This document shows positions 1,530 to 51,543 of a stretch of 64,000 nt of DNA, one piece after another. This stretch comes from Bacteroidaceae bacterium. GTDB lineage: Bacteria > Bacteroidota > Bacteroidia > Bacteroidales > Bacteroidaceae. The notes beneath the pieces were generated by a model. It saw only the letters and a list, made by a program, of their open reading frames with translations. It was not told where the DNA came from and did no database searches. Position numbers and translations under genes: made by a program. Position 1 is the stretch's first letter; the number at the start of each line of letters is the position of its first letter. The stretch is from NCBI GenBank assembly GCA_045629085.1, contig JAZQQO010000034.1, forward strand, positions 20,983 through 84,982, in the 5' to 3' direction.

Positions 1530-4025
1530 CTATTTCTTTAGGATACTTATCAAAGCCACTACAACACTTGCCAGCGAGGCACCACCGCTGGCAATGGCCA
1601 TAATCTCACTGGTAGACATACCCGTCTTCTCAGGTTTGGTGGGCACAACAATCTCACAACCAGGTTGTATGGCTTTGCTACTGTGTCGGCTAATCTTCTC
1701 TACGCCTCCGTTGGCATACACGGCATACACACTATTCTTGCGTGCTTTGTTGGCGTAACCTCCGGCATGCTTGATGTAATATGACAACTTCTTGCCCTTC
1801 ACGTAGTTCATAGAGATAGGATAGGAAACCTCACCTGTAATCTTCACTGTATTCGAGTACTGAGGAACAGTAAGAACATCGCCTTCACGTAGCACGATGT
1901 CCTGCAAGCAACCAGGCTCCTTGATGGCAGCCTCCAGGTCGAGGGCCACAGGATAGGTGTCATCCATGTTCATCTTCATAGTCAACAACGTATCCATCTC
2001 TTCGAAACTGGTTGTCACCTCTTTCTTCAGACTCTCCTCATACATCTGGATTTGAGCCTGCTTCAGTGAGTTGTCACGCTGCAACTTTTCGTCCTCCGTC
2101 ATTCTGCGCACCAAACGGGCTCCGGGCACGTATGCCAATTGGGTGAAACCACCAGCAGCCTTGATGAGGTCGGACAAGCGGAAGTCCTTCGTTGTCATGC
2201 TGTACTGTCCAACAAAGTTCACCTGACCACGCACAGTCACATTCTGCTGAGGCTCGTAGGCAGGACTCTTACGAACATATACTTCATCGTAAGGCATCAA
2301 GTAGAATGTTGTGTCCTGTGTCAAGGCGAAGTTCTCATCCAAACTGAAAGAGAAGCTTTCTGCCGACTTTTTGGTATCTGTCACAGCTCTGGCGTCACGC
2401 AGACGACGGTATACATCAATACGAGCCAAAGAACCTGCCTCGGTCAATCCGCCACACTGAAGGATAATATCGCGCAGTGTAGCATTCTCTGCAAAGGGAT
2501 AGATACCGGGATAAAGCACTTCACCATTCACGGTGATCTTGCGTTCACCTTGCATTTCCACCTTACTTGGAATGAATAGCAAGTCATTGTTTTTCAACGC
2601 AACATCAACGGCCGAACCATCAAGGATGCCTTTAATATCCACACCAATTATCTCTAATGTAAGGTCATCTTTTTGGCGATGCATCACGGCGTGCTCCTGA
2701 TAGGCATCCTCGCTAAGACCATCGCAGGCTAGCAAGAGTTCGCGCACGGTCTGGATATTACCGCCCAGTTGGAACTTTCCTGCATGTTTCACAGCTCCAC
2801 GCACTTCCACCATATTGCTGAAACGGGCACGTACACTGTCCACCTCTACCTCATCCAGATCCTTGAGACTGAACGAAGCCATCTCAAACTCGCCTATCGT
2901 GTGGACACTGTATTCTGCTCCAGATTTACGTGTCAGTCGAACCTTGTCGGTATAAGCGTCTCCAGTGAATCCACCGCTATACATCATCAACTGCTTCACC
3001 GTCTCGCTGCTCTTCATTTCATACCACATGGGGCGCTTCACCTTACCAACCACATTGACAAGGCAATCATACGGCCCTACGACAATGACATCGTTGTCCT
3101 GCAACTGCACATCGCCTGCTGAATTGCCATTGACGATGTAATCATAAACGTCTACACTGGCTATCATTCTGCCACGGCGATACACTTTTATATCACGTAA
3201 CGTACCATTGTCATTAATACCACCTGCGGCATACAAGGCATTAAAAGCACTCGAAAGACTTGACAGACTGTACGTTCCAGGCATATTGACCTCGCCAGCC
3301 ACCTGCACTTGGATGGTACGGATGTCACCTACCGAAAGGTTGAACTGGCAACCGCTGTAGTACTGCCCCAGACGGCTCTTGAGTGCTGCTTTGGCCTGCG
3401 TGACGCTGAGTCCTCCCAGACGGATAAGTCCAACTCCCTCGACTGTAATATTACCATCAGGCGAGATGGTCTCCGTGAACGTCTGCTGGCTAGCACCCCA
3501 CACGTCAATCACCACCTGATCGCCAGGGCCCAACACATACTTTGTTGGAGTGGCCATGTTGGTGCTGGGCTGGAAGGTCAGGTTCTGCTTGTTGAAGATG
3601 TCGCGTCCGAACACCTTACGTCCCGTGTCCATACCTTCCATGTACATCATCAGCGAATCATCTGGTTCTTCGTAGAAAGCGCTCTGATTGACTCCCATAG
3701 GCACGTTCAGCAACTTATCATCCGGATCAATGGGATTGCCGTACTGGTCGTATTGCGTGCGCTTAGTCGACTTCGGTTGCACAATCAAGCTACCACCATT
3801 TTGCTGTGTCTGCTTCATCGTCATCGCCTTACGGCGTACCCGCTGCAACTGCGTCATCGTCACTCCTCTCTTCATCAGTTCCGTAACGATTTGCTGCTGA
3901 CTAGTACCCTTGCCACTTTCCCTTTGAATGTAGGAAATAATCTGGTCGTCTGACATCGACTGTGCAAAAGCACCAATGGCGCCCACCAGGATGAGCGCCA
4001 CAATGAGTGTGAGTTTCTTTATCAT
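1530..4025 (-). CDS. Wza/BexD-family polysaccharide export outer-membrane protein with multiple SLBB-like repeats
   Basis: ORF 1530..4049. The start was trimmed to the ATG at 4023-4025 (MIKKLTLIVALILVGAIGAFAQ signal peptide), which removes the overlap with the upstream gene. It has repeated PGDxVxV / GEVxxPGxY blocks (LGPGDQVVIDVWG, AGEVNMPGTYSL, NGEVLYPGIYPF, TGEVSYPISMNY) and a C-terminal hydrophobic helix. Confidence 0.85.
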   Translation of the reverse strand: MIKKLTLIVALILVGAIGAFAQSMSDDQIISYIQRESGKGTSQQQIVTELMKRGVTMTQLQRVRRKAMTMKQTQQNGGSLIVQPKSTKRTQYDQYGNPIDPDDKLLNVPMGVNQSAFYEEPDDSLMMYMEGMDTGRKVFGRDIFNKQNLTFQPSTNMATPTKYVLGPGDQVVIDVWGASQQTFTETISPDGNITVEGVGLIRLGGLSVTQAKAALKSRLGQYYSGCQFNLSVGDIRTIQVQVAGEVNMPGTYSLSSLSSAFNALYAAGGINDNGTLRDIKVYRRGRMIASVDVYDYIVNGNSAGDVQLQDNDVIVVGPYDCLVNVVGKVKRPMWYEMKSSETVKQLMMYSGGFTGDAYTDKVRLTRKSGAEYSVHTIGEFEMASFSLKDLDEVEVDSVRARFSNMVEVRGAVKHAGKFQLGGNIQTVRELLLACDGLSEDAYQEHAVMHRQKDDLTLEIIGVDIKGILDGSAVDVALKNNDLLFIPSKVEMQGERKITVNGEVLYPGIYPFAENATLRDIILQCGGLTEAGSLARIDVYRRLRDARAVTDTKKSAESFSFSLDENFALTQDTTFYLMPYDEVYVRKSPAYEPQQNVTVRGQVNFVGQYSMTTKDFRLSDLIKAAGGFTQLAYVPGARLVRRMTEDEKLQRDNSLKQAQIQMYEESLKKEVTTSFEEMDTLLTMKMNMDDTYPVALDLEAAIKEPGCLQDIVLREGDVLTVPQYSNTVKITGEVSYPISMNYVKGKKLSYYIKHAGGYANKARKNSVYAVYANGGVEKISRHSSKAIQPGCEIVVPTKPEKTGMSTSEIMAIASGGASLASVVVALISILKK

Positions 4026-4869: not shown

Positions 4870-5270
4870 GGGGCTGACATGGATTTGACAGCAGGATGAA
4901 GCGTTGTGTAAGCACGCAGAGAGTCGGTGATTGCTCTCTATAATCCATAGTTACCAAAGATTTATCTGGCGAAAACAACTACGCTCTCGCTGCCTAATCG
5001 AAGTACAGTAGATTACTGGCTTTATCTCGGCACAAGGTGCTGAGACGAGATGTCACTCAGGCGCTGTGGCTCCGAAGCCCCCTGATCAAGTGGCACAGCA
5101 AAATCGGAGATAGTCCGAAGCGGCCTCGCGCCGAGGATGAAGTTCTTAGAGGATAAGGCATCGGTTGGTGGCCCAGGTCTTGCCAATGCACGAAAATTCA
5201 GGCTGGGATAAGCGTGTAGAAAGCACAGGGGTTCCCTGTTTGGACGAGGGTTCAATCCCCTCCAGCTCCA
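4870..5270 (+). ncRNA. ssrA: tmRNA (SsrA)
   Basis: The 5' end is GGGGCTGACATGGATTTGACAGC. The internal tag frame GGC GAA AAC AAC TAC GCT CTC GCT GCC TAA at 4968-4997 encodes GENNYALAA*. The 3' tRNA-like end is GGACGAGGGTTCAATCCCCTCCAGCTCCA. The acceptor 5' GGGGCTG pairs with 3' CAGCTCC. Confidence 0.92.
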
Positions 5271-5276
5271 CAAACA

Positions 5277-5424: not shown

Positions 5425-5461
5425 CACTCCTAGCAGTCTTAGGGGAAAAGTGCGCAGTAAA
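5425..5461 (+). repeat. Dispersed 38-mer repeat, copy 1
   Basis: cactcctagcagtcttaggggaaaagtgcgcagtaaa matches the reverse complement of 41003-41041 with one indel and three mismatches. It is preceded by the palindrome TTTTTTGCAAAAAA. Confidence 0.7.
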
Positions 5462-5483
5462 ATTTAGGCGAAACTGTATTCTG

Positions 5484-5944: not shown

Positions 5945-7126
5945 ATGACTGAATTGGAGTTGAAGTATGGTTGCAACCCCAACCAAAAACCCTCACGCAT
6001 CTACATGGAAGAGGGCGAATTGCCTATCGAGGTATTGAACGGACGTCCCGGTTATATCAATTTCCTGGACGCACTGAACAGCTGGCAGTTGGTAAAGGAA
6101 CTGAAGGAAGCCACGGGTCTGCCCGCAGCAGCAAGTTTCAAGCACGTATCACCTGCAGGCGCTGCCGTAGGTCTACCCCTGAGCGACACCTTGAAGAAGA
6201 TCTATTTCGTCGATGACGCCCCCCTGCCCCTTACACCTATTGCATCTGCGTATGCACGTGCGCGCGGAGCCGACCGAATGAGTTCGTACGGTGACTTTAT
6301 TGCCCTCTCTGACGAGTGCGACGAGGCAACGGCACGCCTCATCAACCGCGAGGTAAGCGATGGTGTCATCGCTCCCAGTTATAGTCCAGAGGCACTTGAA
6401 GTGCTGAAGAACAAGCGCAAGGGCACCTACAACGTCATCAAGATTGACCCCAACTACCGTCCCGCTCCCATCGAGCGCAAGCAGTGCTTCGGCATCACCT
6501 TCGAGCAGGGCCGCAACGAGATCAACCTGGCCGACGACAGCCTCTTCGCCAACATCCCCACACAGAACAAGACTTTTACTGAGGCTGCCAAGCGCGACCT
6601 CATCATCAGCCTCATCACGCTGAAGTACACACAGTCTAACAGTGTCTGCTACGTCAAGGACGGACAGGCCATCGGCATCGGTGCCGGTCAGCAGAGCCGC
6701 ATCCACTGTACCCGTCTGGCTGGTCAGAAGGCCGACATCTGGTGGCTGCGCCAGCATCCCAAGGTGATGGCACTCCCCTTCGTGGACGGCATCCGTCGTG
6801 CCGACCGCGACAACACCATCGACATCTACATCGGTCCCGAGCACGACGACGTGCTGAAGGAGGGCGAATGGCAGAAGTTCTTCAAGGAGCGTCCCGAGGT
6901 GCTGACCGAGGAGGAGAAGGCTGAGTGGATTGCCAAGAACACCGAGGTGGCTCTGGGCAGCGACGCGTTCTTCCCCTTCGGCGACAACATCGAGCGTGCC
7001 CACAAGAGTGGTGTGCAGTATGTGGCACAGGCTGGTGGCAGCGTGCGCGACGACCATGTCATCGACACCTGCGACAAGTACGGTATCGCCATGGCATTCA
7101 CCGGCGTACGCTTGTTCCATCATTAA
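5945..7126 (+). CDS. AICAR formyltransferase-domain protein (PurH-like, lacking the N-terminal MGS/IMP cyclohydrolase domain)
   Basis: 393 aa. It opens with LKYGCNPNQ (compare the PurH AICARFT-domain motif LRYGENPHQ) and ends ...GVRLFHH, like the PurH C-terminus. The ORF has no room for the cyclohydrolase domain. Confidence 0.8.
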   Translation: MTELELKYGCNPNQKPSRIYMEEGELPIEVLNGRPGYINFLDALNSWQLVKELKEATGLPAAASFKHVSPAGAAVGLPLSDTLKKIYFVDDAPLPLTPIASAYARARGADRMSSYGDFIALSDECDEATARLINREVSDGVIAPSYSPEALEVLKNKRKGTYNVIKIDPNYRPAPIERKQCFGITFEQGRNEINLADDSLFANIPTQNKTFTEAAKRDLIISLITLKYTQSNSVCYVKDGQAIGIGAGQQSRIHCTRLAGQKADIWWLRQHPKVMALPFVDGIRRADRDNTIDIYIGPEHDDVLKEGEWQKFFKERPEVLTEEEKAEWIAKNTEVALGSDAFFPFGDNIERAHKSGVQYVAQAGGSVRDDHVIDTCDKYGIAMAFTGVRLFHH

Positions 7127-7128
7127 TA

Positions 7129-7166
7129 GACCCTCTCCCCAACCCTCCCCCATAATGGGGAGGGAG
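7129..7166 (+). repeat. GC-rich nested-hairpin element, copy A
   Basis: GACCCTCTCCCCAACCCTCCCCCATAATGGGGAGGGAG, with hairpin CCCTCCCC/GGGGAGGG. It starts 2 nt after the TAA stop at 7124-7126. Confidence 0.8.
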
Positions 7167-26277: not shown

Positions 26278-27636
26278 CTAAAACTGAAAGTATATGAACT
26301 GCACCCGGCTTCCGCCAAGCATGATGACACTCAGGAAAACGACAAGGTACGTCAGCATTCTCACCACTTGCGACCGTTGCCACCCGCTCTCCCTCCAGCA
26401 GAAGGGATGACGGCATTCACCCATCATGAACTCTGCCCCCAACAATATGGCGATCAAGGCCAATGGCATTCGCGAAAGCGTAGTGCCGCCAAAGGACGTA
26501 ACGTCAAACATCCCACTGACATATCCGCACGCCTCAGCCGCGTCAGGACTTCGGAAAATGACCCATCCCACCACGACAAGCAGGAAGGTGACATAACGAT
26601 GGGGGATGACGAACCACAACCAGTTGTAGAAGCCCCATAGGACGTACGTCCAGTTGCTGCCATGCCACAGACCACTCAGCAAGAATACCGCCAACTGATT
26701 GATTCGCTGACGCGCTTTGCCTCTTCGGCTACCGCCAAGCGGTATGTACACATAATCCTTAAACCAGTTCATCAGCGTAACGTGCCAGCGACGCCAGAAC
26801 TCAGGAATGGTCTTTGAGAAATATGGGCGACGGAAATTGTCCGAAAGTTGTATGCCGAACAACTTGGCCGAGCCAATGGCGATGTCAGAATAACCGGAGA
26901 AATCTCCATAGATCTGGAAGGTGAAGAAAAGAGCGCCCAACCACAAATCGGTAGCACCGTAGTTGGCATAATTCCCGAAAACGACATTGACCATCGTAGC
27001 ACAGTTATCTGCCACCAGCACCTTCTTCACCAAGCCCCAAAGTATCTGACGCATACCATCGCGCGCCTGCTCAAACGAGAAGTTCCGCCGACATCCCAAC
27101 TGCGGCATCATGTCGCTACCACGTTCTATAGGCCCTGCCACAAGTTGCGGGAAAAAGGAGATGAAAGCCATAAAGTCAAGCAGACGGCATGGCACCACCC
27201 GTCCGGCCTTGTTTTCGCGATAGCAATCCACGAGATAACCTGACAGTTGGAAAGTATAGAAGGAGATACCTACCGGCAGGATCACGTTCAGGGAGGAAAG
27301 TTCCGTGTGCAATCCCACACAGTCAAGCAGTTGCTGCAAGTTTTCCACAAAAAAGTTGAAATACTTGAATACGCCCAACAAGCCGAAATTGAGCATCAGT
27401 GCCAGGACAAGGCTCGTCTTACGCCATGACGGCGACCGCTGCATCAGGCCGAGAAGAGCATAATTGACCACGCAGGTTGCCATCATCAGCAACAGGAACT
27501 GCCAGTTCCACCATCCATAGAACACCATACTCCCTGCCAGAATCACAGCATTCTGCATCATGCGCGACCGCACACTCCAATACAGGAGGAACACGACCGG
27601 CAGGAAAAGAAGATATTCTAATGAGTTAAATAGCAT
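26278..27636 (-). CDS. MBOAT-family O-acyltransferase (AlgI/DltB-like)
   Basis: 452 aa. It starts MLFNSLEYLLFLPVVFLLYW, has a multi-TM body, and carries the conserved His region FWRRWHVTLMNWFKDYVYIPLGGSRRG. Confidence 0.85.
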   Translation of the reverse strand: MLFNSLEYLLFLPVVFLLYWSVRSRMMQNAVILAGSMVFYGWWNWQFLLLMMATCVVNYALLGLMQRSPSWRKTSLVLALMLNFGLLGVFKYFNFFVENLQQLLDCVGLHTELSSLNVILPVGISFYTFQLSGYLVDCYRENKAGRVVPCRLLDFMAFISFFPQLVAGPIERGSDMMPQLGCRRNFSFEQARDGMRQILWGLVKKVLVADNCATMVNVVFGNYANYGATDLWLGALFFTFQIYGDFSGYSDIAIGSAKLFGIQLSDNFRRPYFSKTIPEFWRRWHVTLMNWFKDYVYIPLGGSRRGKARQRINQLAVFLLSGLWHGSNWTYVLWGFYNWLWFVIPHRYVTFLLVVVGWVIFRSPDAAEACGYVSGMFDVTSFGGTTLSRMPLALIAILLGAEFMMGECRHPFCWRESGWQRSQVVRMLTYLVVFLSVIMLGGSRVQFIYFQF

Positions 27637-27655
27637 ATACGCCCCCCTCTCTATC

Positions 27656-28417
27656 CTATGGGCAATTTATCATTATTCCGTTGATGTTGCGGCCCGTCTT
27701 GATCGTCTCACGGCGGGCAGAATAAAAACCGGGGGACTGCATCGTGCAAGTGCCATCGATGTGAATCCTATGCACTCCTGCACATTCAAGGAGCCATGCG
27801 TTGGCACGCCAGAGGTCGAGATGCCATTTTTTCATTCTACGGGCAATCTGCTCCATCGGGAAGTCGGCTTCGCGAAAAGCCTCATAAACCTCATCCCCTA
27901 CCTCGAAACTATCAAGGCTGATGCCTGGCCCTATTACTGCATGAAGGTCTTCGCCACGGCTTTGCATCTCACGGATGGTGCGTTCCACAATCCTTCCTAC
28001 CGTACCTCGCCAACCGGCATGAATGGCAGCCACCAGTTGCTGACGCTCATCGTAAAGGAGAACAGGGATGCAATCAGCAGTCTTCACTGCCACACACAAG
28101 CCCGGCACTCGCGTGATGACAGCATCCGTATCAGGCAATTCGCCCGCAGTCTCTGTCCATGCCACATTCACACTATGCGTCTGGCGGGGAATGAACAAAG
28201 CCCCTCTCCCCGACCCTCCCCCGAGGGGGGAGGACGTAGATAGATCTTGACTCCCTAAAATACGGAAGGAGGAAGGAGGATTGGTTTGCTCTGCCTCATC
28301 GCACGAGGGAAAGGTAATCCCCACCTCGCGTGCATCGACACCAGGCTCTGTACCATGACAGCCCTTACCAGCGGTAAAGGCTGTCACTGTATCTGCTATG
28401 TCATAAAATATATGCAT
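27656..28417 (-). CDS. pgeF: PgeF/YfiH-family (DUF152, laccase-domain) protein carrying an in-frame repeat-element insertion
   Basis: 253 aa with family signatures PRQTHS..V, KTADCIPVLL, AAIHAGWRGT, GPGIS and CT....FYSARR. The segment ...SSPLGGGSGRGA... is encoded by GC-rich element copy B. Confidence 0.75.
   Translation of the reverse strand: MHIFYDIADTVTAFTAGKGCHGTEPGVDAREVGITFPSCDEAEQTNPPSSFRILGSQDLSTSSPLGGGSGRGALFIPRQTHSVNVAWTETAGELPDTDAVITRVPGLCVAVKTADCIPVLLYDERQQLVAAIHAGWRGTVGRIVERTIREMQSRGEDLHAVIGPGISLDSFEVGDEVYEAFREADFPMEQIARRMKKWHLDLWRANAWLLECAGVHRIHIDGTCTMQSPGFYSARRETIKTGRNINGIMINCP
28199..28234 (+). repeat. GC-rich nested-hairpin element, copy B (inside the pgeF coding sequence)
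   Basis: AGCCCCTCTCCCCGACCCTCCCCCGAGGGGGGAGG has the same architecture as copy A. The reading frame is maintained across it. Confidence 0.75.
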
Positions 28418-28445
28418 CGTTCTTATTGACTTGCAGTTCTATAAT

Positions 28446-28509
28446 CTCCTCCCCTCTCGGGGGACTTTTGCCAGCGGGCAAAATGTATGGACGAAGGCCG
28501 GAGAGGGGC
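28446..28509 (-). repeat. GC-rich nested-hairpin element, copy F (long-spacer variant)
   Basis: The reverse complement reads GCCCCTCTCCGGCC...TCCCCCGAGAGGGGAGGAG. Its CCCTCTCC end lies 1 nt from the obg stop codon (28511-28513). Confidence 0.65.
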
Positions 28510-28510
28510 T

Positions 28511-29665
28511 TTAATCCTCTATCTCGTAATCCTCCAGTTCCTCGATATCTGCATCGTCCAGAATCTCGATGTCCTCATCCTCACCCATATCCTCGAGTTC
28601 AGACTGGAGATAGCCGAGATCCTTGTTCTTATGCACGATTCGCTCGTCATCGAGAATGGCCTGCAGTTTGTTGCTTTCACTATTGAGGGCAGCCCAAAGC
28701 ACATCCTTCAGCTCCGTCAGTCCCTTGTTAGCAACGGCAGAAATGAACACGACAGGCAGGTCATCGGGCAGATCTACAGAGAGCATCTCCACCAGTTCGT
28801 CATCCAACAAGTCACTCTTCGTGACAGCCAGCACGCGCTGCTTGTCCATCAGTTCCGGGTTGAAACTTCCCACCTCGTTCAGCAGAATCTCATATTCCTT
28901 CTTGATGTCGTCCGTATCGCCAGGCACCATAAAGAGCAGCAACGAGTTACGCTCGATATGGCGCAAGAAACGAAGACCGAGTCCCCTACCCTCGCTGGCT
29001 CCCTCGATGATACCTGGGATATCAGCCATCACAAACGACTGGTTGTCGCGATAGGATACAATGCCTAAAGAAGGCTCCATCGTAGTAAAGGGATAGTTGG
29101 CAATCTTGGGTTTAGCCGATGACAAAGAACTGAGCAACGTGGACTTACCAGCATTGGGGAATCCCACCAGACCGACATCAGCCAGCAGTTTCAACTCCAT
29201 GATGACGGTAAGCTCCATCATCGGTTCGCCGGGCTGTGCATAACGGGGAGCCTGATTGGTAGAGGTGGCAAAATGGATATTACCTTGTCCGCCACGGCCT
29301 CCCTTAAGGAGCATCACCACTTCTCCGTCATGCTTCACGTCACAGATGTACTCACCCGTATCGGCATTATACACCACCGTACCGCAAGGCACGTCAATGT
29401 ACTTGTCATCGCCCTTGGCACCCGTGCTGCCACTCTTACCACCATTGCCGCCATGACCAGCAAAGATATGACGGTCGTAACGCAGGTGCAGCAACGTCCA
29501 ATAGTTGCGGTTGCCACGCAGATACACATGGCCACCGCGTCCACCATCGCCGCCATCAGGGCCACCATTAGGTGCGTACTTAGCACGATGCATGTGTGCA
29601 CTACCACGACCGCCCTTTCCTGAGCGGCACACGATCTTTACGTAATCAACGAAATTCGATTCCAT
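28511..29665 (-). CDS. obg: GTPase Obg/CgtA
   Basis: [27 protein letters not shown]... (Obg fold), G1 motif [21 protein letters not shown], and an acidic C-terminal tail. The start was set at the ATG at 29663-29665, because the 13 extra codons of ORF 28511..29704 read through repeat copy C. Confidence 0.95.
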
Positions 29666-29670
29666 CAGAA

Positions 29671-29715
29671 GACCCTCTCCGGCGCTTTGCGCCACCTCCC
29701 CCATAATGGGGAGGA
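29671..29715 (+). repeat. GC-rich nested-hairpin element, copy C
   Basis: GACCCTCTCC-GGCGCTTTGCGCC-ACCTCCCCCATAATGGGGAGGA. It begins 5 nt from the obg start codon. Confidence 0.8.
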
Positions 29716-29847
29716 CTTTTACACATTTTACCTATCAACTCATTTCTACAGGAGGATTATCACACATTAGGCAATCATCACACCTCTGTAGAAGGATTAT
29801 CCATTTGACCCATCACCCCGCTTCCCTATCCAATCTCTCAAAGAGAG

Positions 29848-29888
29848 GCCCCCTCCCCATTACGGGGGAGGGCGGGGGGAGAGGGGCC
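29848..29888 (-). repeat. GC-rich nested-hairpin element, copy D
   Basis: The reverse complement reads GGCCCCTCTCCCCCCGCCCTCCCCCGTAATGGGGAGGGGGCC. Its CCCTCTCC end lies 9 nt from the adk stop codon. Confidence 0.8.
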
Positions 29889-29897
29889 GCTTCTATA

Positions 29898-30470
29898 TTA
29901 CTTCTGCGTATCCAGGAACGCGAAGATATCACCGAGCATCTGCTCTTTGCTGCCATTCCAGGTGAAGGTGTGGCGCATACCCTCCTTTTCAAACCACTCA
30001 GCGAGAGGTTCTGTCTGAGCATGGTAAACAGCGAAACGCTTCTTGATGGTCTCCTCATTGTCATCGGCACGTCCCTGCTCGATAGCACGGTTCAGCAGAC
30101 GTGCCAGCAAGGTCTCCTCGTCAACGATGAGTTCTACCATCACACCCATGTCGTGCTTACGTTCTGCCAACATCTGCTTCAAAGCCTCAGCCTGTGCAAT
30201 GGTGCGGGGGAAACCGTCAAAGATCACGCCCTGACCAGCAGGCAAGTTGTCATACGTATCTGCCAAGATATCGATCATCAGTGAGTCGGGCAGCAACTGA
30301 CCATTGTCGATATAGCCCTTAGCGGTCTTACCCAGTTCGGTACCAGCCTTTATCTGAGCACGCAGCACGTCGCCCGTGCTGATGTGTCCCATACCATAAC
30401 GCTTTACAATCTCATCGCTGTAGGTACCCTTGCCACTGCCAGGAGCACCAAAAATAATAATGTTCTTCAT
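29898..30470 (-). CDS. adk: Adenylate kinase
   Basis: 190 aa with the MKNIIIFGAPGSGKGT P-loop, ISTGDVLR and GFPRT motifs. Confidence 0.95.
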   Translation of the reverse strand: MKNIIIFGAPGSGKGTYSDEIVKRYGMGHISTGDVLRAQIKAGTELGKTAKGYIDNGQLLPDSLMIDILADTYDNLPAGQGVIFDGFPRTIAQAEALKQMLAERKHDMGVMVELIVDEETLLARLLNRAIEQGRADDNEETIKKRFAVYHAQTEPLAEWFEKEGMRHTFTWNGSKEQMLGDIFAFLDTQK

Positions 30471-30495
30471 TCTTTTTTATGTATAAATTAACAAC

Positions 30496-31035
30496 TCAAT
30501 CCTCAATCACATAGATATCCCTCGTATTTCGACCCTGCTGATCGTAATCAAGCCCATAGCCGAGAATAAATTCATTGGGAATTCGAAGTGCACAATACTT
30601 GATATCCAACTGCACCTGAAGTTTCTCTGGCTTTAGGAGAAGCGTACAGATGTCAATGCTCTTGGGATTATGCTTTTTAAGCGTTTCGAGCATGTGTGCC
30701 ATCGTGAGTCCCGTATCCACGATATCCTCAATGATAATAACCGGACGGTCCGTGATATCTATATTAAGACCTATCATTTCATGTATCTTACCCGTTGACT
30801 GTACACCCTCGTATGAGGCCAACTTCACGAAAGAAATCTCGCAAGGCAGCGTAATCTCACGCAGCAAATCGGCAGCAAAGATGAAAGCACCATTCAGCAC
30901 TGCAAGAAACACAGGCTCCTGTCCTTCATAATCCTTGTTGATTTCACCAGCCACACGCGCTACCTGCTTCAGGATCTCAGTTTCTGGTATTGAAATACGA
31001 AAATCTTTATCTTTTACACGCATAACAACAAACAA
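30496..31035 (-). CDS. hpt: Hypoxanthine phosphoribosyltransferase
   Basis: 179 aa with PRPP-binding block VIIIEDIVDTGLT. The true start may be the ATG at 31023 (MRVKDKDF...). Confidence 0.9.
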   Translation of the reverse strand: MFVVMRVKDKDFRISIPETEILKQVARVAGEINKDYEGQEPVFLAVLNGAFIFAADLLREITLPCEISFVKLASYEGVQSTGKIHEMIGLNIDITDRPVIIIEDIVDTGLTMAHMLETLKKHNPKSIDICTLLLKPEKLQVQLDIKYCALRIPNEFILGYGLDYDQQGRNTRDIYVIED

Positions 31036-31056: not shown

Positions 31057-31129
31057 GCAAAAAAGTTTGAATAGACCCACATAATATATAAAAATGTGCG
31101 TCAAAACAGCAAAATGTGAGCCAAGAGTC

Positions 31130-31164
31130 GTGAATTGTGAATTATGAATTATGAATTATGAATT
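31130..31164 (+). repeat. Heptamer tandem array (5 units: GTGAATT x2, ATGAATT x3)
   Basis: gtgaattgtgaattatgaattatgaattatgaatt. It ends 8 nt before the nnr -7 box. Confidence 0.9.
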
Positions 31165-31184: not shown

Positions 31185-32723
31185 ATGAAAATACTCACTG
31201 GCACTCAACACGCGGAACTCGACCGATACACCATCGAGAATGAGCCGATAGAATCCATTGAATTGATGGAGCGTGCGTCACAAGCCATCGCACTCGAAAT
31301 CATGTCGCGATGGGACAAGCAGCGCATCGTCTACGTTTTCGCTGGAGCGGGCAACAATGGCGGAGACGGATTGGCCGTAGCACGACTACTCTACAAAGAG
31401 GGATACCGTGTGGCTGTATATCTATTTAATGTCAAAGGCCACCTGAGTCCTGACTGTTCCACCAATCGCGACAGGCTTGTGGAACTGCAGAGCGCAGAAA
31501 ACTCTGCCGAACGTCTTGTATTCAAAGAAATCACACAAGGTTTCGATTTCCCTAAGATTAACGCAAACGACATCATCATCGACGCACTCTTCGGCACAGG
31601 CCTCAAGAGTCCTTTGTCGGGAGGATTTGCCGTGGTAGCGCGCAAGATTAACGGAACTCACGCTCACATTGTCAGCATAGACATACCCAGTGGTCTGATG
31701 TGCGAGAACAATGCCTTTACAGACCGCTCCGTAGTGATTCACGCAGAACTCACGCTGAGCGTACAGTTACCCAAGTTAGCCTTCCTAATGGCTGACAACG
31801 AGATATGCGTAGGCGAGTGGAAAACTATCGACATTGGCCTTTCGGAAGAAGGCATCGCTCAGGCTAACACCCCCTACTCCATGATTGAGGAGAACGAGGT
31901 ACGCGAACTTCTTCACAAGCGCCCCGCCTTTGCCCACAAGGGCACGATGGGACATGCACTGCTTGTTGCAGGAAGTCACGGCATGGCAGGAGCGGCCATC
32001 TTGGCTGCCAAATCTTGCCTGCGCAGCGGAGTCGGCAAGTTGTCTGTACACACTTGCTCGTCTGCCAACAACATCATGCAAATCAGTGTACCTGAAGCCG
32101 TTCTCCTACTTGATAAGAACAGCCGTAACATCTCCGAGACGCTTGACATCAGCCGTTTCCAATCCATCGGCATAGGTCCCGGGATCGGACGTGACAATGC
32201 TACAGCTGAAGCCGTACAGAGTTATCTTGCCGTAGCAGATGAACCTCTTGTGGTCGATGCCGATGCCCTCAACATCCTTGGCGATCATCGCGAGTGGATG
32301 GGCCACTTGCCCAGCGGCAGTATCCTCACCCCACATGTCAAGGAACTGGAGAACATCACAGGCATTTGTGCTAACTCATATGAACGCCTCACCCAAGCCT
32401 CCGAACTGGCTGTGTCATATCATATCTATGTCATACTGAAAGGGCACTACACAGCCATCTGCACACCGCAAGGCCGTGTTCTGTTTTGCCCTAAGGGCAA
32501 TCCCGGCATGGCAACTCCTGGCAGCGGCGACGTACTGACAGGCATTCTCACTGGCCTGCTGGCACAAGGCTATCCTCCCAGCGAGGCAACCATTCTTGGT
32601 GTATGGCTCCATGCTTCAGCAGGCGACTTGGCAGCAGAGGAGTTAGGTGAGGAGTTTATGCTGGCCAGCGACATCATCACCCACCTCAGTGGAGCGTGGA
32701 AGAGATTGAAGATTGAAAATTGA
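31185..32723 (+). CDS. nnr: Bifunctional NAD(P)H-hydrate repair enzyme Nnr (YjeF_N epimerase + YjeF_C dehydratase)
   Basis: GAGNNGGDGLAVARLL (YjeF_N) and the GPGIG...GSGDVLTG kinase-like C-terminal domain. The start at MKILTG is preferred because the ATG at 31158 lies inside the heptamer array. Confidence 0.9.
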   Translation: MKILTGTQHAELDRYTIENEPIESIELMERASQAIALEIMSRWDKQRIVYVFAGAGNNGGDGLAVARLLYKEGYRVAVYLFNVKGHLSPDCSTNRDRLVELQSAENSAERLVFKEITQGFDFPKINANDIIIDALFGTGLKSPLSGGFAVVARKINGTHAHIVSIDIPSGLMCENNAFTDRSVVIHAELTLSVQLPKLAFLMADNEICVGEWKTIDIGLSEEGIAQANTPYSMIEENEVRELLHKRPAFAHKGTMGHALLVAGSHGMAGAAILAAKSCLRSGVGKLSVHTCSSANNIMQISVPEAVLLLDKNSRNISETLDISRFQSIGIGPGIGRDNATAEAVQSYLAVADEPLVVDADALNILGDHREWMGHLPSGSILTPHVKELENITGICANSYERLTQASELAVSYHIYVILKGHYTAICTPQGRVLFCPKGNPGMATPGSGDVLTGILTGLLAQGYPPSEATILGVWLHASAGDLAAEELGEEFMLASDIITHLSGAWKRLKIEN

Positions 32724-32745
32724 AAAATGAAGATTGAAAATATGA
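32704..32745 (+). repeat. Heptamer tandem array (6 units, GATTGAA family) spanning the nnr stop and the next gene start
   Basis: gattgaa gattgaa aattgaa aaatgaa gattgaa aatatga. The nnr TGA (32721-32723) and both candidate ATGs of the next gene (32727, 32742) lie inside it. Confidence 0.85.
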
Positions 32746-40868: not shown

Positions 40869-41002
40869 TATATAAAATAGGAAATAAGCAAATAATCAAG
40901 CAATTTTCTGCTTTTTTGAGGCAATGATAAGCAAATAGGCACACCATGTCATTATTTTTAGCACTACGGCACAAAGATTTTCTGTGTAACATTTTTGTTA
41001 AC

Positions 41003-41041
41003 TTTACCGCACACCTTTCCCCTAAGACTGCTAGGAGAGTG
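41003..41041 (-). repeat. Dispersed 38-mer repeat, copy 2 (inverted relative to copy 1)
   Basis: The reverse complement cactctcctagcagtcttaggggaaaggtgtgcggtaaa matches 5425-5461. Confidence 0.7.
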
Positions 41042-41161: not shown

Positions 41162-41272
41162 TTTTGACACAGATTACGCAGATTTCACAGATTATTTCCA
41201 TTTGACACGACTTGACGGATTCTATTTCTGCTAAAATAAAAATCTGTGAAATCTGCGTAATCTGTGTCAAAA
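41162..41272. repeat. Perfect 32 bp inverted repeat with a 47 nt loop
   Basis: Left arm ttttgacacagattacgcagatttcacagatt (41162-41193) is the exact reverse complement of 41241-41272. Each arm contains three ~9 nt sub-repeats (nnCAGATTn). Confidence 0.9.
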
Positions 41273-46590: not shown

Positions 46591-47481
46591 ATGAATAAAA
46601 AGATGAAGAATATGAAAAAGATACTCTTTATGATATGTGCAGCGATGGTAGCATTCACATCCTGCATGAACGACAAGGACGCAGAGGTCGTTCCCGTAAA
46701 CCAATTCACGGCGAAGGGACTACCTGCTCCCACGACAACGATTTCAAAGATCAGGTCAAACTACAGCAGTGTCATCAGCAACAACAACAGCCAGAAGTTC
46801 ACAACGGACGAGGTGTTCGACGGCATCGTAGTTGCCAACGACATTTCGGGCAACATCTACCAGTTTATCTACCTGCAGGGCCTCAATGCCGATGGCAGCA
46901 TCAACACTGACGAGGGCGGCATCGCCGTAGGCGTCAAGGGCCTCGGCTGTCTCTACACCATCTTCCCCGTTGGTCAGCAGGTACGTGTCAACCTCAAAAA
47001 CCTCTATGTGGGTGGCTACGGAGCATCACCTCGTATCGGACTGCCCTACGTCAACACAAACGGCGCCATCCGTCTGGGTCCCATGACACTCCCCTACCTC
47101 TCCACCAACATCGAACTCATTGGCACACCACATCCTGAACTGGTGGTGGCACGCGAGACGACAGGCGAGGAAATCAACAATCCCAACACATTGAACAAGC
47201 TCTCACCCATGTTGGTAGTGCTGAAAAATGCAGAGATTGCCGATGCCGGCTGGCCCTACGCACACTGGGAAGTCGGTGGCGACACATACTCAGAGTACCA
47301 CGACATTAAGATTGGTAGTACTGTCGTGAAGCAGCTGCTCTATACCTCAACAAGTGCCACCTTTGCGGGTGACACCATCAAGGCTGGCAAGAAGACCATT
47401 TACGGTCTGCTAGGCAAGTACTCTTCTTCTCCCCAGCTCTCTATCCGTTCGCTCGACGACATCATCGAGTTGGGAAAATGA
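46591..47481 (+). CDS. Lipoprotein with OB-fold-like domain (tentatively DUF5689-like)
   Basis: Lipoprotein signal (...MVAFTSC). The segment DGIVVANDISGNIYQFIYLQ...VGQQVRVNLKNLYVGGYG resembles OB-fold barrels seen in extracellular nucleases. It starts 7 nt after the receptor gene. Confidence 0.55.
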   Translation: MNKKMKNMKKILFMICAAMVAFTSCMNDKDAEVVPVNQFTAKGLPAPTTTISKIRSNYSSVISNNNSQKFTTDEVFDGIVVANDISGNIYQFIYLQGLNADGSINTDEGGIAVGVKGLGCLYTIFPVGQQVRVNLKNLYVGGYGASPRIGLPYVNTNGAIRLGPMTLPYLSTNIELIGTPHPELVVARETTGEEINNPNTLNKLSPMLVVLKNAEIADAGWPYAHWEVGGDTYSEYHDIKIGSTVVKQLLYTSTSATFAGDTIKAGKKTIYGLLGKYSSSPQLSIRSLDDIIELGK

Positions 47482-47538
47482 AGGTTGAAGATTGAAGATT
47501 GAAGATTGAAAATTGAAGGTTGAAAATTGAAAATTGAG
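47476..47538 (+). repeat. Heptamer tandem array (9 units, GATTGAA family), the longest in the window
   Basis: aaatgaa ggttgaa gattgaa gattgaa gattgaa aattgaa ggttgaa aattgaa aattgag. The stop codon of the preceding gene (47479-47481) is in the first unit. Confidence 0.9.
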
Positions 47539-47552
47539 AAAATAATACAATC

Positions 47553-49835
47553 ATGAAAAAGATATTTAACTTACTGCTTTCTGCAGTAGCCGTCATCGGC
47601 ATCACCACATCATGCTCTGATGTACCCGCTCCCTATGACATCAATCAGGGAGGTGAAATTTCATTCGGAAAAGTAATGCCCTATAAGAGCGCCAGCCTTA
47701 GCACAGGATGGACAACAAACAAACTGTCAGAGAACGAGCCCTGGAGCCAAGGTAGCAGTTACACGCAGGCCACTGGCTATCAGGACTGGGACGGCGCTGG
47801 TTCAAAGACCAACAAAGAGGTAGAGGGTTACCTCATCTCCCCCGCCCTCAACACCAAAAGCGAGAGCGGAAAAGCCAAGTTCTCATTCGACTACACCATC
47901 AAGTACACCAACAATGTTAGCGACTGGCAAAGTAGACACAAGATTCTGATTTCAAAGAACTACGACGGCAAGGAGTTCAAGCCTGAGCAGTGGGAGGAGC
48001 TGAACTGGGTCGGTACGGCAAGCCCTTACAGCGACTGGACTTTGTACAGCAGCGGGGACATTCAGATTCCCGAGGCTTACACAAACAAGGACAGCATCTA
48101 CGTTGCCTTCCACTTCAGTGCTCCCGCAAGTTCTTCTACCACTTGGGAACTTATGAATTTCCTTATCCAAGAGGGTGAAGCAGACAACACTGACGGTCCG
48201 GCACCTGGTGGCGATAGCAGCAAAGAAGCACCCTACACAGTAGCAGAAGCCAAAGCAGCAACCGGTACTGGTTATGTGAAGGGTTACATCGTCGGCTATA
48301 TCGATGGTCAGAAGCTGGAAGAGGGTGCAAAGTTCGAGGTTCCTGCTGCTGCAGAGACTGAGATTCTTATTGCAGATGACCCCAATGAGACTAATGCCAG
48401 CAACACATTCCCCGTACAATTGCCTGCAGGTGATATCCGCTCAGCACTTGAGCTCTCGGCACATCCTGACTACCTCAAGAAGGAAGTCATCCTGTATGGT
48501 TCTATCGAGACCTACTTTGGCGTGCCAGGCTTGAAGGCAACTTCATGGGCTAGCATTGACGGCAAGGAATATGGTAAGGACCCTGAAGGTGTAGAGACTC
48601 CCGGAACTCCCGAGGGTACCGGTACACTTGAGGATCCCTACAACGTGGCAGGTGTCATCGCATACATCAACACACTGGGTGCTGACAAGGAATCAGACAA
48701 GGCTGTATATGTGAAGGGTAAGGTTGCAAGCAACACCACCACCGAAGCCACCATCTCGCAGTATGGCAACATGACCTTCACCATCGTGGATGAGGGCAAC
48801 TCTACTACCTTCACCGCATTCCAGGTTTATGCTCCCGGAAACGTCAAGTTTACCGCAGTTGACCAAATCAAGGTAGGCGATGAGGTAGTCATCTACGGTA
48901 AGGTGGTCAACTACAAGGGCAACATACCCGAGACCGTTGGCAAGGGTCAGGCATACGTGGTTTCTATCAACGGCAAGAGCGAGGAAGGTGGCAATACCGG
49001 TGGTAACGAAGGCGATGCACAGCACATCACTATTGCCAAGTTCCTTGAGCTGGCAGACCCCAATACCACATACGAGCTCACAGGTACAGTAAAGAATATC
49101 AAGAACACCACATATGGCAACTTTGACCTCGTTGACGAAACCGGTTCTGTATACATCTATGGTCTGCTCGACTTGGAGGGCAAAAACAAGAACTTCGCAA
49201 GCTTAAACATCACAGAAGGTGACGAGGTTACCCTCAAAGGTAAATACAAGGACTACAACGGCACAGCTGAGATTGCTGACGCCCAATTCATCAGCGTAAA
49301 GAAGGGCGACGGTGGCAACACCACACCCGACGACGGTGGTAACACTGGCGGTGACAACACTGGTGCCTCTACTCTGGAGAACGGCGACTTCGAGTCATGG
49401 GTCAGCAGCACCGAGCCCACAGGTTGGAAGAGTGCTTCTACCGCAAGCAACGCTAAGTTAAGCCAGTCTACCACCGCTCATGGTGGCAAATACGCAGTAG
49501 AGGTAGAAGGCAACGAAACCAGCAACAAGCGTTTGGCTTCTCAGGAGATTACCCTCGAGGCTGGCACTTACACCTTCTCGTTCTATGCCAAGGCCAAGGA
49601 GGCAGGTAAATCACAGGTACGTCCCGGATACGTTCCTGTAACCGACGGCAAGGTGGGCAGCTATATGTATGGCGATTATGCTACACTGAACAATGACGAG
49701 TGGACACTCGTAACCTATGAGTTTACCCTCAATGCCAAGAGCACCATTTGCCTCGTTATCATGAATCCCAAGAAGTCTGATTACTCTGACGGCAAGCCCG
49801 CATTAATCGATGATGCTACGTTGACGAAAAAATAA
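47553..49835 (+). CDS. Large surface lipoprotein (760 aa) with OB-fold nucleic-acid-binding-like domains and a C-terminal CBM-like domain
   Basis: Lipoprotein signal (...GITTSC). OB-fold-like segments include YELTGTVKNIKNTTYGNFDLVDETGSVYIYGL...VTLKGKYKDYNGTAEI. Domains are joined by Gly-Asn-Thr linkers. The C-terminal jelly-roll-like region is NGDFESW...IDDATLTKK. Confidence 0.65.
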   Translation: MKKIFNLLLSAVAVIGITTSCSDVPAPYDINQGGEISFGKVMPYKSASLSTGWTTNKLSENEPWSQGSSYTQATGYQDWDGAGSKTNKEVEGYLISPALNTKSESGKAKFSFDYTIKYTNNVSDWQSRHKILISKNYDGKEFKPEQWEELNWVGTASPYSDWTLYSSGDIQIPEAYTNKDSIYVAFHFSAPASSSTTWELMNFLIQEGEADNTDGPAPGGDSSKEAPYTVAEAKAATGTGYVKGYIVGYIDGQKLEEGAKFEVPAAAETEILIADDPNETNASNTFPVQLPAGDIRSALELSAHPDYLKKEVILYGSIETYFGVPGLKATSWASIDGKEYGKDPEGVETPGTPEGTGTLEDPYNVAGVIAYINTLGADKESDKAVYVKGKVASNTTTEATISQYGNMTFTIVDEGNSTTFTAFQVYAPGNVKFTAVDQIKVGDEVVIYGKVVNYKGNIPETVGKGQAYVVSINGKSEEGGNTGGNEGDAQHITIAKFLELADPNTTYELTGTVKNIKNTTYGNFDLVDETGSVYIYGLLDLEGKNKNFASLNITEGDEVTLKGKYKDYNGTAEIADAQFISVKKGDGGNTTPDDGGNTGGDNTGASTLENGDFESWVSSTEPTGWKSASTASNAKLSQSTTAHGGKYAVEVEGNETSNKRLASQEITLEAGTYTFSFYAKAKEAGKSQVRPGYVPVTDGKVGSYMYGDYATLNNDEWTLVTYEFTLNAKSTICLVIMNPKKSDYSDGKPALIDDATLTKK

Positions 49836-51364: not shown

Positions 51365-51374
51365 TTCGGGAGCA

Positions 51375-51420
51375 AGACACAATAAAAGGGATGCCAATCG
51401 GCATCCCTTTTATTGTGTCT
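51375..51420 (+). terminator. Long perfect hairpin / terminator after the L31 gene
   Basis: A 21 bp stem AGACACAATAAAAGGGATGCC / GGCATCCCTTTTATTGTGTCT with a 4 nt loop. Confidence 0.7.
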
Positions 51421-51543
51421 TAAAAAGTAGTGAAAAGAGTATTTATCGCGCAGATTCCCAACTAACTTATTAAAATCCTATGTCAAAGTGTAATTTTTCT
51501 TTCTTATTCACTAAATAATTTTGGATATTTTCTTAAAAAGCCT

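Follow-up and report, generated by a model that had tools for sequence, protein, structure and literature searches.

Our analyses of a 64,000-nucleotide (nt) stretch of DNA from a Bacteroidaceae bacterium (GenBank assembly GCA_045629085.1, contig JAZQQO010000034.1, positions 20,983 to 84,982; hereafter the window, meaning this stretch at its full length) have identified a family of GC-rich nested-hairpin elements, which are best explained as non-coding, non-autonomous and mobile dispersed repeats of the BoxC/PIT/TMECO type. We assign this reading a probability of about 0.7. The part of it that concerns the spread of the copies, which would be driven by small nucleases of the DUF559 family, is one that we infer from the genes found beside such repeats in other bacteria.

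The family stands out clearly from chance expectation. The word CCCTCTCC, referred to here as the box, occurs seven times in the window against a mean of 1.25 in shuffled sequences, none of 100 shuffles reaching seven; six of the seven matches adjoin a G/C hairpin and the seventh, at 19748, is a lone chance match in a coding region. The hairpin CCTCCCC-N3-9-GGGGAGG is found four times (0.00 in shuffles), and a strict structural detector, which demands a perfect 7-bp C-rich stem and a box identical to the 5' arm at 6 or more of 7 positions, gives five hits (copies A, B, C, D, and G; Table 1) against none in 20 shuffles. All of the copies listed in the original prediction, which had described a family of at least seven from the letters alone, are present where it placed them. 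Copies A to F are genuine members, the 5' arms of E and F being degraded, and copy G belongs to a related subtype with different words.

Read on the C-rich strand, the unit consists of (A)AGAAGA, the box CCCTCTCC, a spacer, the 5' arm CC(C)TCCCC(C), a loop of 3–5 nt and the 3' arm GGGGAGG(G). The box is nearly the same word as the 5' arm and either is able to pair with the single G-rich arm; in RNA folds the G arm pairs with the 5' arm in copies A and C and with the box in copies B, E, and F. Two forms can be distinguished, viz. a short form (A, B, and D) with a spacer of 4–5 nt and a long form (C, E, and F) in which the spacer is a self-folding hairpin, the minimum-free-energy fold of copy C consisting of two hairpins (z = −3.4). 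Of the 39 distinct long spacers gathered from the window and metagenomes, 25 form clean hairpins, which fill the whole spacer and have unrelated stem sequences; the mean folding energy is −6.1 kcal/mol compared with −2.1 kcal/mol in shuffles. What is conserved in the spacer is a fold that holds the box beside the arm, and not a sequence. The G-rich strand of the short form carries the canonical G-quadruplex (G4) motif G5-A-G3-TT-G4-AGA-G3 as well as a class II triplex motif with one mismatched triad, and the G4 motif is lost in the long forms C, E, and F. As judged from its letters, each unit can adopt a hairpin that leaves a third strand to spare, giving an intrastrand triplex, or its opposite strand can form a G-quadruplex. 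Unlinked copies are identical over 20–34 nt, loops and AGAAGA end included, as are copies on different contigs.

Table 1. Positions and parts of the elements in the window, with the genes and loci that bear on them.
Feature	Coordinates	Strand	Parts or members	Genic context
Copy A, short form	7129..7166	+	box CCCTCTCC 7131-7138; spacer CCAA; hairpin CCCTCCCCC 7143-7151 / ATAAT / GGGGAGGG 7157-7164	box 4 nt past the TAA (7124-7126) of a purH-like gene
Copy B, short form	28199..28234	+	box 28202-28209; hairpin CCCTCCCCC / GAG / GGGGGAGG 28214-28233	in frame within minus-strand pgeF; encodes SSPLGGGSGRGA
Copy F, long form, degraded	28446..28509	-	box 28500-28507, GGAGAGGG on the + strand; inner mini-hairpins TTTTGCC-CGC-TGGCAAAA; terminal hairpin CCCC/GGGG	box CCCTCTCC 3 nt past the obg stop (28511-28513); tail 28 nt ahead of the pgeF ATG (28417)
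Copy C, long form, left arm of doublet	29671..29715	+	box 29673-29680; spacer hairpin GGCGC-TTT-GCGCC 29681-29693; hairpin CCTCCCCC / ATAAT / GGGGAGG 29695-29714	box CCCTCTCC 7 nt from the obg ATG (29665)
Interior of inverted doublet C...D	29716..29847	no strand	132 nt	
Copy D, short form with 4-nt second loop, right arm of doublet	29848..29888	-	box 29878-29885	box 12 nt past the adk stop (29898-29900)
Copy E, long form	63153..63195	+	box 63155-63162; spacer hairpin GTCCC-TAC-GGGAC 63163-63175; degraded terminal hairpin CCCCCC / TTTAT / GGGGAGG	box 7 nt from the truA ATG (63147)
Copy G, other subtype, E. coli TMECO-like	63349..63377	-	box CCTCACC; hairpin CCTCTCC-AAA-GGAGAGG	in frame (SLTPASPKERS) in the C-terminal part of a secreted protein
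Host gene string	27656..30470	-	adk 29898-30470, obg 28511-29665, pgeF 27656-28417 (Pfam assignments)	D...C and F at its junctions, B within pgeF
DUF559 loci selected by element			L084, L086, L121, L160, L186, L192	
DUF559 loci selected by protein			L202-L213 and L214-L225	

The superfamily to which these elements belong is already known. In Escherichia coli it has been named BoxC, later PIT elements and later TMECO (Holder et al., 2015, PMC4666352; earlier work by Bachellier and by Hoyne/Maher), and the pattern CCCTCNCCC-N3-6-GGGNGAGGG-N3-GGGNGAGGG has recovered 3610 copies in 262 proteobacterial genomes (PMC4666352). The same E. coli elements have also been described as HPGQ, a "G-quadruplex-hairpin-duplex switch" (Kaplan et al., 2016, PMC5100583). 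Copies A and B of the window fit the TMECO pattern if one substitution per stem is allowed, a match seen in none of 50 shuffles, and copy D departs from it solely by its 4-nt second loop; copies C, E, and F fall outside it because a hairpin is inserted in their second loop. A metagenome scan with the pattern given in the original prediction has yielded at least 145 copies, on contigs of 0.37–0.72 GC from soil, sediment, and gut, and among the matches listed the spacing and spacer consensus are the same as in the window. The family is therefore not private to the source genome. A literature search with the Prevotellaceae consensus sequence gave no match. Judged by their sequence layout, the window elements are a Prevotellaceae subfamily of the BoxC/PIT/TMECO superfamily, a membership that the original prediction had missed.

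The likenesses to the known superfamily are extensive. Both share the three-word layout (a C-rich word, a short loop, a near-identical C-rich word, a loop and a complementary G-rich word) and occur in many copies per genome, in numbers that vary widely between close relatives (5–7 in the 64 kb of the window). The inverted pairs of two subtypes that are often seen in E. coli K-12 (PMC4666352) have counterparts in the window and in its relative L004, where short D is paired with long C, and in L158, which likewise pairs a short with a long form, and both groups are tied to variable intergenic DNA, with function unknown. The window elements differ in residing in a member of the Bacteroidota, unlike the proteobacterial copies of the published study, in their words (CCCTCTCC / CCCTCCCC, with loops ATAAT or GTAAT and the AGAAGA end), and in the self-folding hairpin that the long form carries between box and arm. 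They also differ in position: the box ends lie 3–12 nt from codons, whereas in E. coli the distances are 10–310 nt with no trend, and two window copies (B and G) are in frame in coding sequence, whereas the K-12 copies are "always intergenic" (PMC4666352). Intergenic location characterizes the E. coli copies and does not enter into the definition of the motif. What is new here is thus the subfamily in Bacteroidota, the long form with its nested hairpin, the copies in coding frame and the tight docking at codons. Together with clean filled and empty sites they add to a group that has been catalogued for about 30 years with its function unknown and with "no activities that provide genetic mobility" and "never" a transposase or integrase nearby (PMC4666352).

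The copies in the window are insertions that have been recently gained and lost within the lineage. Comparisons were made with the obg loci of 80 related genomes (665 kb in total), the nearest of which are uncultured Prevotellaceae/Bacteroidaceae metagenome-assembled genomes from animal guts with 92–96% Obg identity; no exact-protein match was on record for the Obg (with two start choices), TruA, and Adk proteins of the window or for a 260-amino acid (aa) TruA call. The strict detector gives only seven hits in these 665 kb, corresponding to 0.10 copies per 10 kb compared with 0.78 per 10 kb in the window, and most of the obg loci are without the motif. The orthologous filled and empty sites that the original prediction had proposed to look for are found at two junctions. 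L003, L005, and L006 have no element between adk and obg, the adk stop overlapping or abutting the obg ATG, and in the window and L004 this junction is filled by an inverted doublet that occupies the whole spacer with its boxes outward, a short unit following the adk stop and a long unit preceding the obg ATG. Similarly, obg and pgeF overlap stop on start in L004 and L035, and the junction is filled by copy F in the window and in L003, the orthologous L003 copy being further decayed. An alignment of pgeF shows that the insertion containing copy B is shared by the window and L003, where it is diverged, and is missing from L002, L004, and L035. Thus the window has all of these copies, L003 has F and B, L004 has D and C, and L005 and L035 have none, a patchwork that indicates recent gain or loss. 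Copy E is found at the same junction in L294 with its hairpin intact and is lacking at truA in L295, where the upstream gene differs. The designation of the family as a REP/MITE-like dispersed repeat in the original prediction is upheld; the family is real and insertion-polymorphic.

D and C, which the original prediction had treated as separate copies, are the two ends of one inverted doublet of 218 nt in which the boxes of both arms point outward; its interior holds no open reading frame (ORF) and has partial homology to the shorter interior in L004. It had likewise listed copy B without recognizing that B and G are in-frame coding insertions; B is present but is not intergenic, forming part of an insertion of about 28 aa in a variable linker of PgeF. 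A single composite of B and F was considered and is ruled out, as the conserved N-terminus of pgeF lies between them. Palindromic repeats that are tolerated in variable protein segments have a parallel in the Rickettsia palindromic elements, selfish palindromes that Ogata et al. are said to have described in 2000 as inserted into protein genes in frame. The two groups are unrelated in sequence, the Rickettsia elements are 100–150 nt long, and the window copies are mostly intergenic. As a separate observation, the close relatives L001 and L002 carry a different insertion between adk and obg, at approximately 3820–3990, which is about 190 nt long and contains a 17-bp hairpin (AAGGTTACAGG...CCTGTAACCTT), and this junction has therefore also been struck by an unrelated element.

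The elements dock at genes by one end. The original prediction had proposed that the box end faces the nearest gene boundary, and this is borne out by 21 window-type copies on 11 contigs, six of them from the window (G being left out as a different subtype) and 15 from L003, L004, L294, L158, L163, L128, L117, L179, L296, and L297. The box end lies 3–12 nt from a codon of a long ORF in 16 of the 21 copies (11 stops and 5 starts), whereas no hairpin end comes within 12 nt of such a codon, the closest being at 22 and 30 nt. The distances of 2, 1, 9, 5, and 5 nt first given for copies A, F, D, C, and E correspond to 4, 3, 12, 7, and 7 nt when measured from CCCTCTCC, the earlier count having included an additional G[ACG]C. 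Doublets with outward boxes, about 110–220 nt long, are found in the window and in L004, L158, L163, L135, L164, and L296, and all five that could be scored occupy the entire spacer between two genes. Part of the docking rule is explained by this arrangement, since the box lies outermost in the inserted unit, and the spacers into which insertion took place were of zero length. Mere lack of space fails as a full explanation: in single copies that have 28–300 nt free on the hairpin side the box is nonetheless at the codon, and free space on that side is seen in A, E, and the copy at position 3730 of L296.

The inverted doublet with boxes at its outer ends (D...C) is probably the unit that moves, and single copies would represent half-units. 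Doublets may have filled junctions at which neighboring genes once overlapped stop on start, and a box end 3–12 nt from a codon would in part follow from this, while in-frame copies such as B and G would survive in tolerant protein loops. For the host, the predicted consequences are that the adk-obg-pgeF string loses its stop/start overlaps, that obg and truA gain three consecutive hairpins reaching to about 5 nt from the ATG, and that PgeF and the secreted protein carry extra loop residues. Any effects on the expression of adk, obg, and truA would be side effects of the elements and not the reason for their presence. In having terminal inverted repeats (TIRs) that bound a short non-coding unit, the outward-box doublets resemble miniature inverted-repeat transposable elements (MITEs).

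A candidate for the enzyme that such units would depend upon is provided by the genes that neighbor related elements elsewhere. Clustering of the ORFs in 120 metagenome loci selected for their elements has identified one recurrent family directly adjoining elements, a protein of about 110 aa matching PF04480 (DUF559, a Vsr-like nuclease; E = 1e-43), and all seven DUF559 genes, in six of these loci, are directly flanked by elements. When loci were instead selected by protein (tblastn, annotated plasmids and chromids), all 12 DUF559 loci proved to be flanked by elements, mostly on both sides, each with its own lineage-specific element words. This sample spans Alpha-, Beta-, and Gammaproteobacteria, Cyanobacteria, and Deinococcus (viz. 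Sphingomonas, Azospirillum, Sinorhizobium, Novosphingobium, Neisseria, Klebsiella, Photobacterium, Synechocystis, Picosynechococcus, Pseudanabaena, and two Deinococcus). In the two Deinococcus loci the DUF559 gene is bracketed by perfect TIRs of 50–58 nt, the units being inserted right after the paaD stop codon or next to hpaB; an autonomous MITE partner would share the ends of the non-autonomous unit, and no such TIR-DUF559-TIR unit was found with window-type ends. About 43 nt of the Deinococcus psychrotolerans TIR (L209, 2893–2962) match Rahnella and Aeromonas elements at 86–92% identity, a cross-phylum similarity that is unusually high for a short repeat. Among IMG/VR homologues of at least 44% identity, 12 of 12 are flanked by elements (nine by the strict detector and three more by eye), and in that sample elements are 23 times denser within 300 nt of the DUF559 gene than further out; at distant partial Vsr-like matches on IMG/VR phage contigs elements were found in 0 of 59 cases. 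In E. coli K-12 a decayed element overlaps the 3' end of ycjD and a TMECO element lies about 170 nt downstream (L201, 1351407–1351760). The outward search thus adds a consistent neighbor, as repeat-bracketed DUF559 genes occur in every phylum sampled.

The DUF559 proteins beside elements have invariant catalytic E, D, H, and D residues and so resemble other nucleases of the Vsr-like/EDxHD family, which include the homing endonuclease I-Bth0305I (Taylor, 2011, as cited in PMC9403480 and PMC3424549) and Caulobacter VsrA (PMC12907096); the window differs from the loci of those genes in that no DUF559 gene was seen in it. DUF559 genes are 14-fold enriched among predicted inversion targets (PMC9881135), which fits the presence of inverted repeats around them. 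This enrichment is the sole hint in the literature, our searches having found no published link between DUF559 and BoxC/TMECO repeats.

A small DUF559 endonuclease of the Vsr-like, EDxHD type, which in other phyla appears to bracket itself with elements as RAYT genes do with REPs, could accordingly act in trans to spread copies of the element. We tentatively suggest, at somewhat less than even odds, that spread depends on this nuclease acting on a folded or slipped element. Pairing of the box with the G arm would create a T:G mismatch, the classical Vsr substrate, and nuclease action might then be followed by copying through repair, with inverted doublets serving as non-autonomous units; the mismatch step is speculative. 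A more far-reaching proposal, which we regard as possible but somewhat doubtful, is that the stand-alone DUF559 protein is the cognate enzyme of the BoxC/PIT/TMECO superfamily in Proteobacteria, Cyanobacteria, Deinococcus, and gut bacteria, in a relationship like that of RAYT and REP, that the doublets are its non-autonomous derivatives, and that the Prevotellaceae subfamily truly prefers to insert next to starts and stops. If the DUF559 link is functional, it would offer a testable mechanism for repeat spread and for the destabilization of intergenic DNA; it would also assign a role to DUF559, a very common domain whose function is not known, E. coli YcjD being among its members.

Several observations weigh against mobile repeats spread by DUF559 nucleases. 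Searches with a hidden Markov model of DUF559 over six-frame translations of the window, and over the 80 obg loci, the truA loci and the viral contigs with window-type elements, found none. The elements that flank DUF559 genes have their boxes outward, their boxes inward, or form direct repeats, and therefore no single transposon model fits; the DUF559 genes could instead home into the elements, and the proteins may move the repeats, home into them, or merely be stabilized there. No target-site duplication is readable in the comparison of filled with empty junctions at 92–96% protein identity, because the compared genomes are too diverged. Docking is much weaker in the wider superfamily: among the matches listed, a stop codon lies within 12 nt on the box side of 12 of 145 copies and on the hairpin side of 6 of 145, with controls at 3–5%; stop-codon distances with controls were used for this measurement instead of greedy ORF calls, which on high-GC metagenome contigs place half of the copies "inside" ORFs and were judged unreliable. 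Lastly, copies A, E, and the L296 copy have free space on the hairpin side, which is not readily accounted for if elements survive only at gene junctions.

The alternative that survives best, which is nonetheless unlikely, is that the elements are host-selected RNA elements, acting at 3' ends as a stabilizing or terminating hairpin and at 5' ends as hairpins combined with the purine-rich ribosome-binding tract GGAGAGGG. The tight and asymmetric placement of the box end at start and stop codons, the stable folds with a spacer hairpin kept by covariation-like variation, and the occurrence of GAGG about 8 nt ahead of the obg and truA ATG are all consistent with such a role. In E. coli, Liang, Rudd and Deutscher are said to have found in 2015 that REPs lying no more than 15 nt from a stop codon modulate translation. 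Against termination, for which the original prediction had allowed, no copy scores as an intrinsic terminator: a terminator scan of 27500–30600 calls no element, there is no T-run on the sense strand, and the T-runs following C and E are antisense to obg and truA. The Shine-Dalgarno-like role that it proposed is likewise unsupported: the identical obg/truA junction, GGAGAGGGTCTTCT, is simply the element's own terminal sequence (AGAAGACCCTCTCC), and AGAAGA also precedes boxes sited after stop codons on other contigs. Bacteroidota moreover largely lack Shine-Dalgarno pairing. The orientation of the element is opposite at starts and at stops, two copies lie within coding sequence, and close relatives manage without the element, with translationally coupled genes. 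Rfam 15 at the gathering score found only a tmRNA in the window, and at E ≤ 1 nothing over 28150–29950. The E. coli relatives of the element are without promoter and terminator activity (PMC4666352).

An immobile non-B-DNA motif, i.e., an intrastrand triplex or G4-hairpin switch that arises locally and is kept at junctions for recombination or for modulating replication or transcription, is quite improbable. The short form does combine a canonical G4 with a class II triplex motif on its G-rich strand, the spacer hairpin keeps the box beside the duplex arm, and triplex or G4 formation in vitro and an excess of intergenic rearrangement have been reported for the E. coli elements (PMC4666352, PMC5100583). 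Identity of unlinked copies over 20–34 nt, however, points to copying and not to independent origin, the long forms C, E, and F lose the G4 motif, and in vivo the published study detected no stable triplex (PMC4666352).

A classical REP (repetitive extragenic palindromic) or REPIN family moved by a RAYT, an IS200/IS605-like tyrosine transposase, is very improbable indeed: the elements are likewise short GC-rich extragenic palindromes with a patchy distribution in relatives, lineage-specific bursts and inverted doublets (often of about 110–220 nt) that probably form the unit, and a lone small nuclease gene bracketed by its own repeats may be a further likeness, but the GTAG or CGTC tetranucleotide whose presence at the palindrome end defines the two REP superfamilies (PMC3733652) is absent from both ends, which read AGAAGACCCTCTCC and GGGGAGG(G)AG, there is an extra third-strand box, the architecture is near-identical across phyla, unlike that of lineage-private REPs, and no RAYT gene was found in the window or among the recurrent neighbors of the 120 metagenome loci, where the only recurrent neighbor, DUF559, encodes a PD-(D/E)XK Vsr-like protein and not an HUH tyrosine transposase.

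The genes flanking the window copies are a purH-like gene (AICARFT_IMPCHas), an AraC-type regulator, pgeF (Cu-oxidase_4), obg, adk, hpt, and truA. Longest-ORF and database calls start obg (397 aa) at 29704 and truA (260 aa) at 63177, inside the element, and ORF calls across elements yield spurious peptides such as SLPITGEGWGEGL and "GEGWGEG" (L158, L163, and L128); element-borne gene starts and peptides are thus a likely source of annotation artefacts.

Other repeats in the window are of different kinds. Many intergenic spacers contain tandem arrays of 7-nt units (AGATTGA, GAATTGT, and CAATTAT), located in the window at 32703–32741, 47461–47555, 31108–31164, 61341–61379, 62342–62380, and 62917–62952; relatives have different arrays at the same junctions (L294 1850–2030, L295 3290–3600, and L035 3850–4000), and this looks like a second, unrelated and fast-evolving spacer filler. 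Two AT-rich structures are likewise unrelated to the GC-rich family: at 41162–41272 the arms of an inverted repeat (35 nt, 97%) are separated by 41 nt, and at 51374–51421 a perfect palindrome of 22 bp encloses a loop of 4 nt. The tmRNA gene is located at 4870–5273 (Rfam RF00023, 128 bits), and about 150 nt past it lies the first arm of a 38-nt inverted repeat, 89% identical, at 5427–5464 and 41000–41037. The arms of this repeat are 35.5 kb apart, enclose giant ORFs at 8832–15080 (2082 aa) and 15104–24646 (3180 aa), and may mark the limits of a segment that is integrated or can invert.

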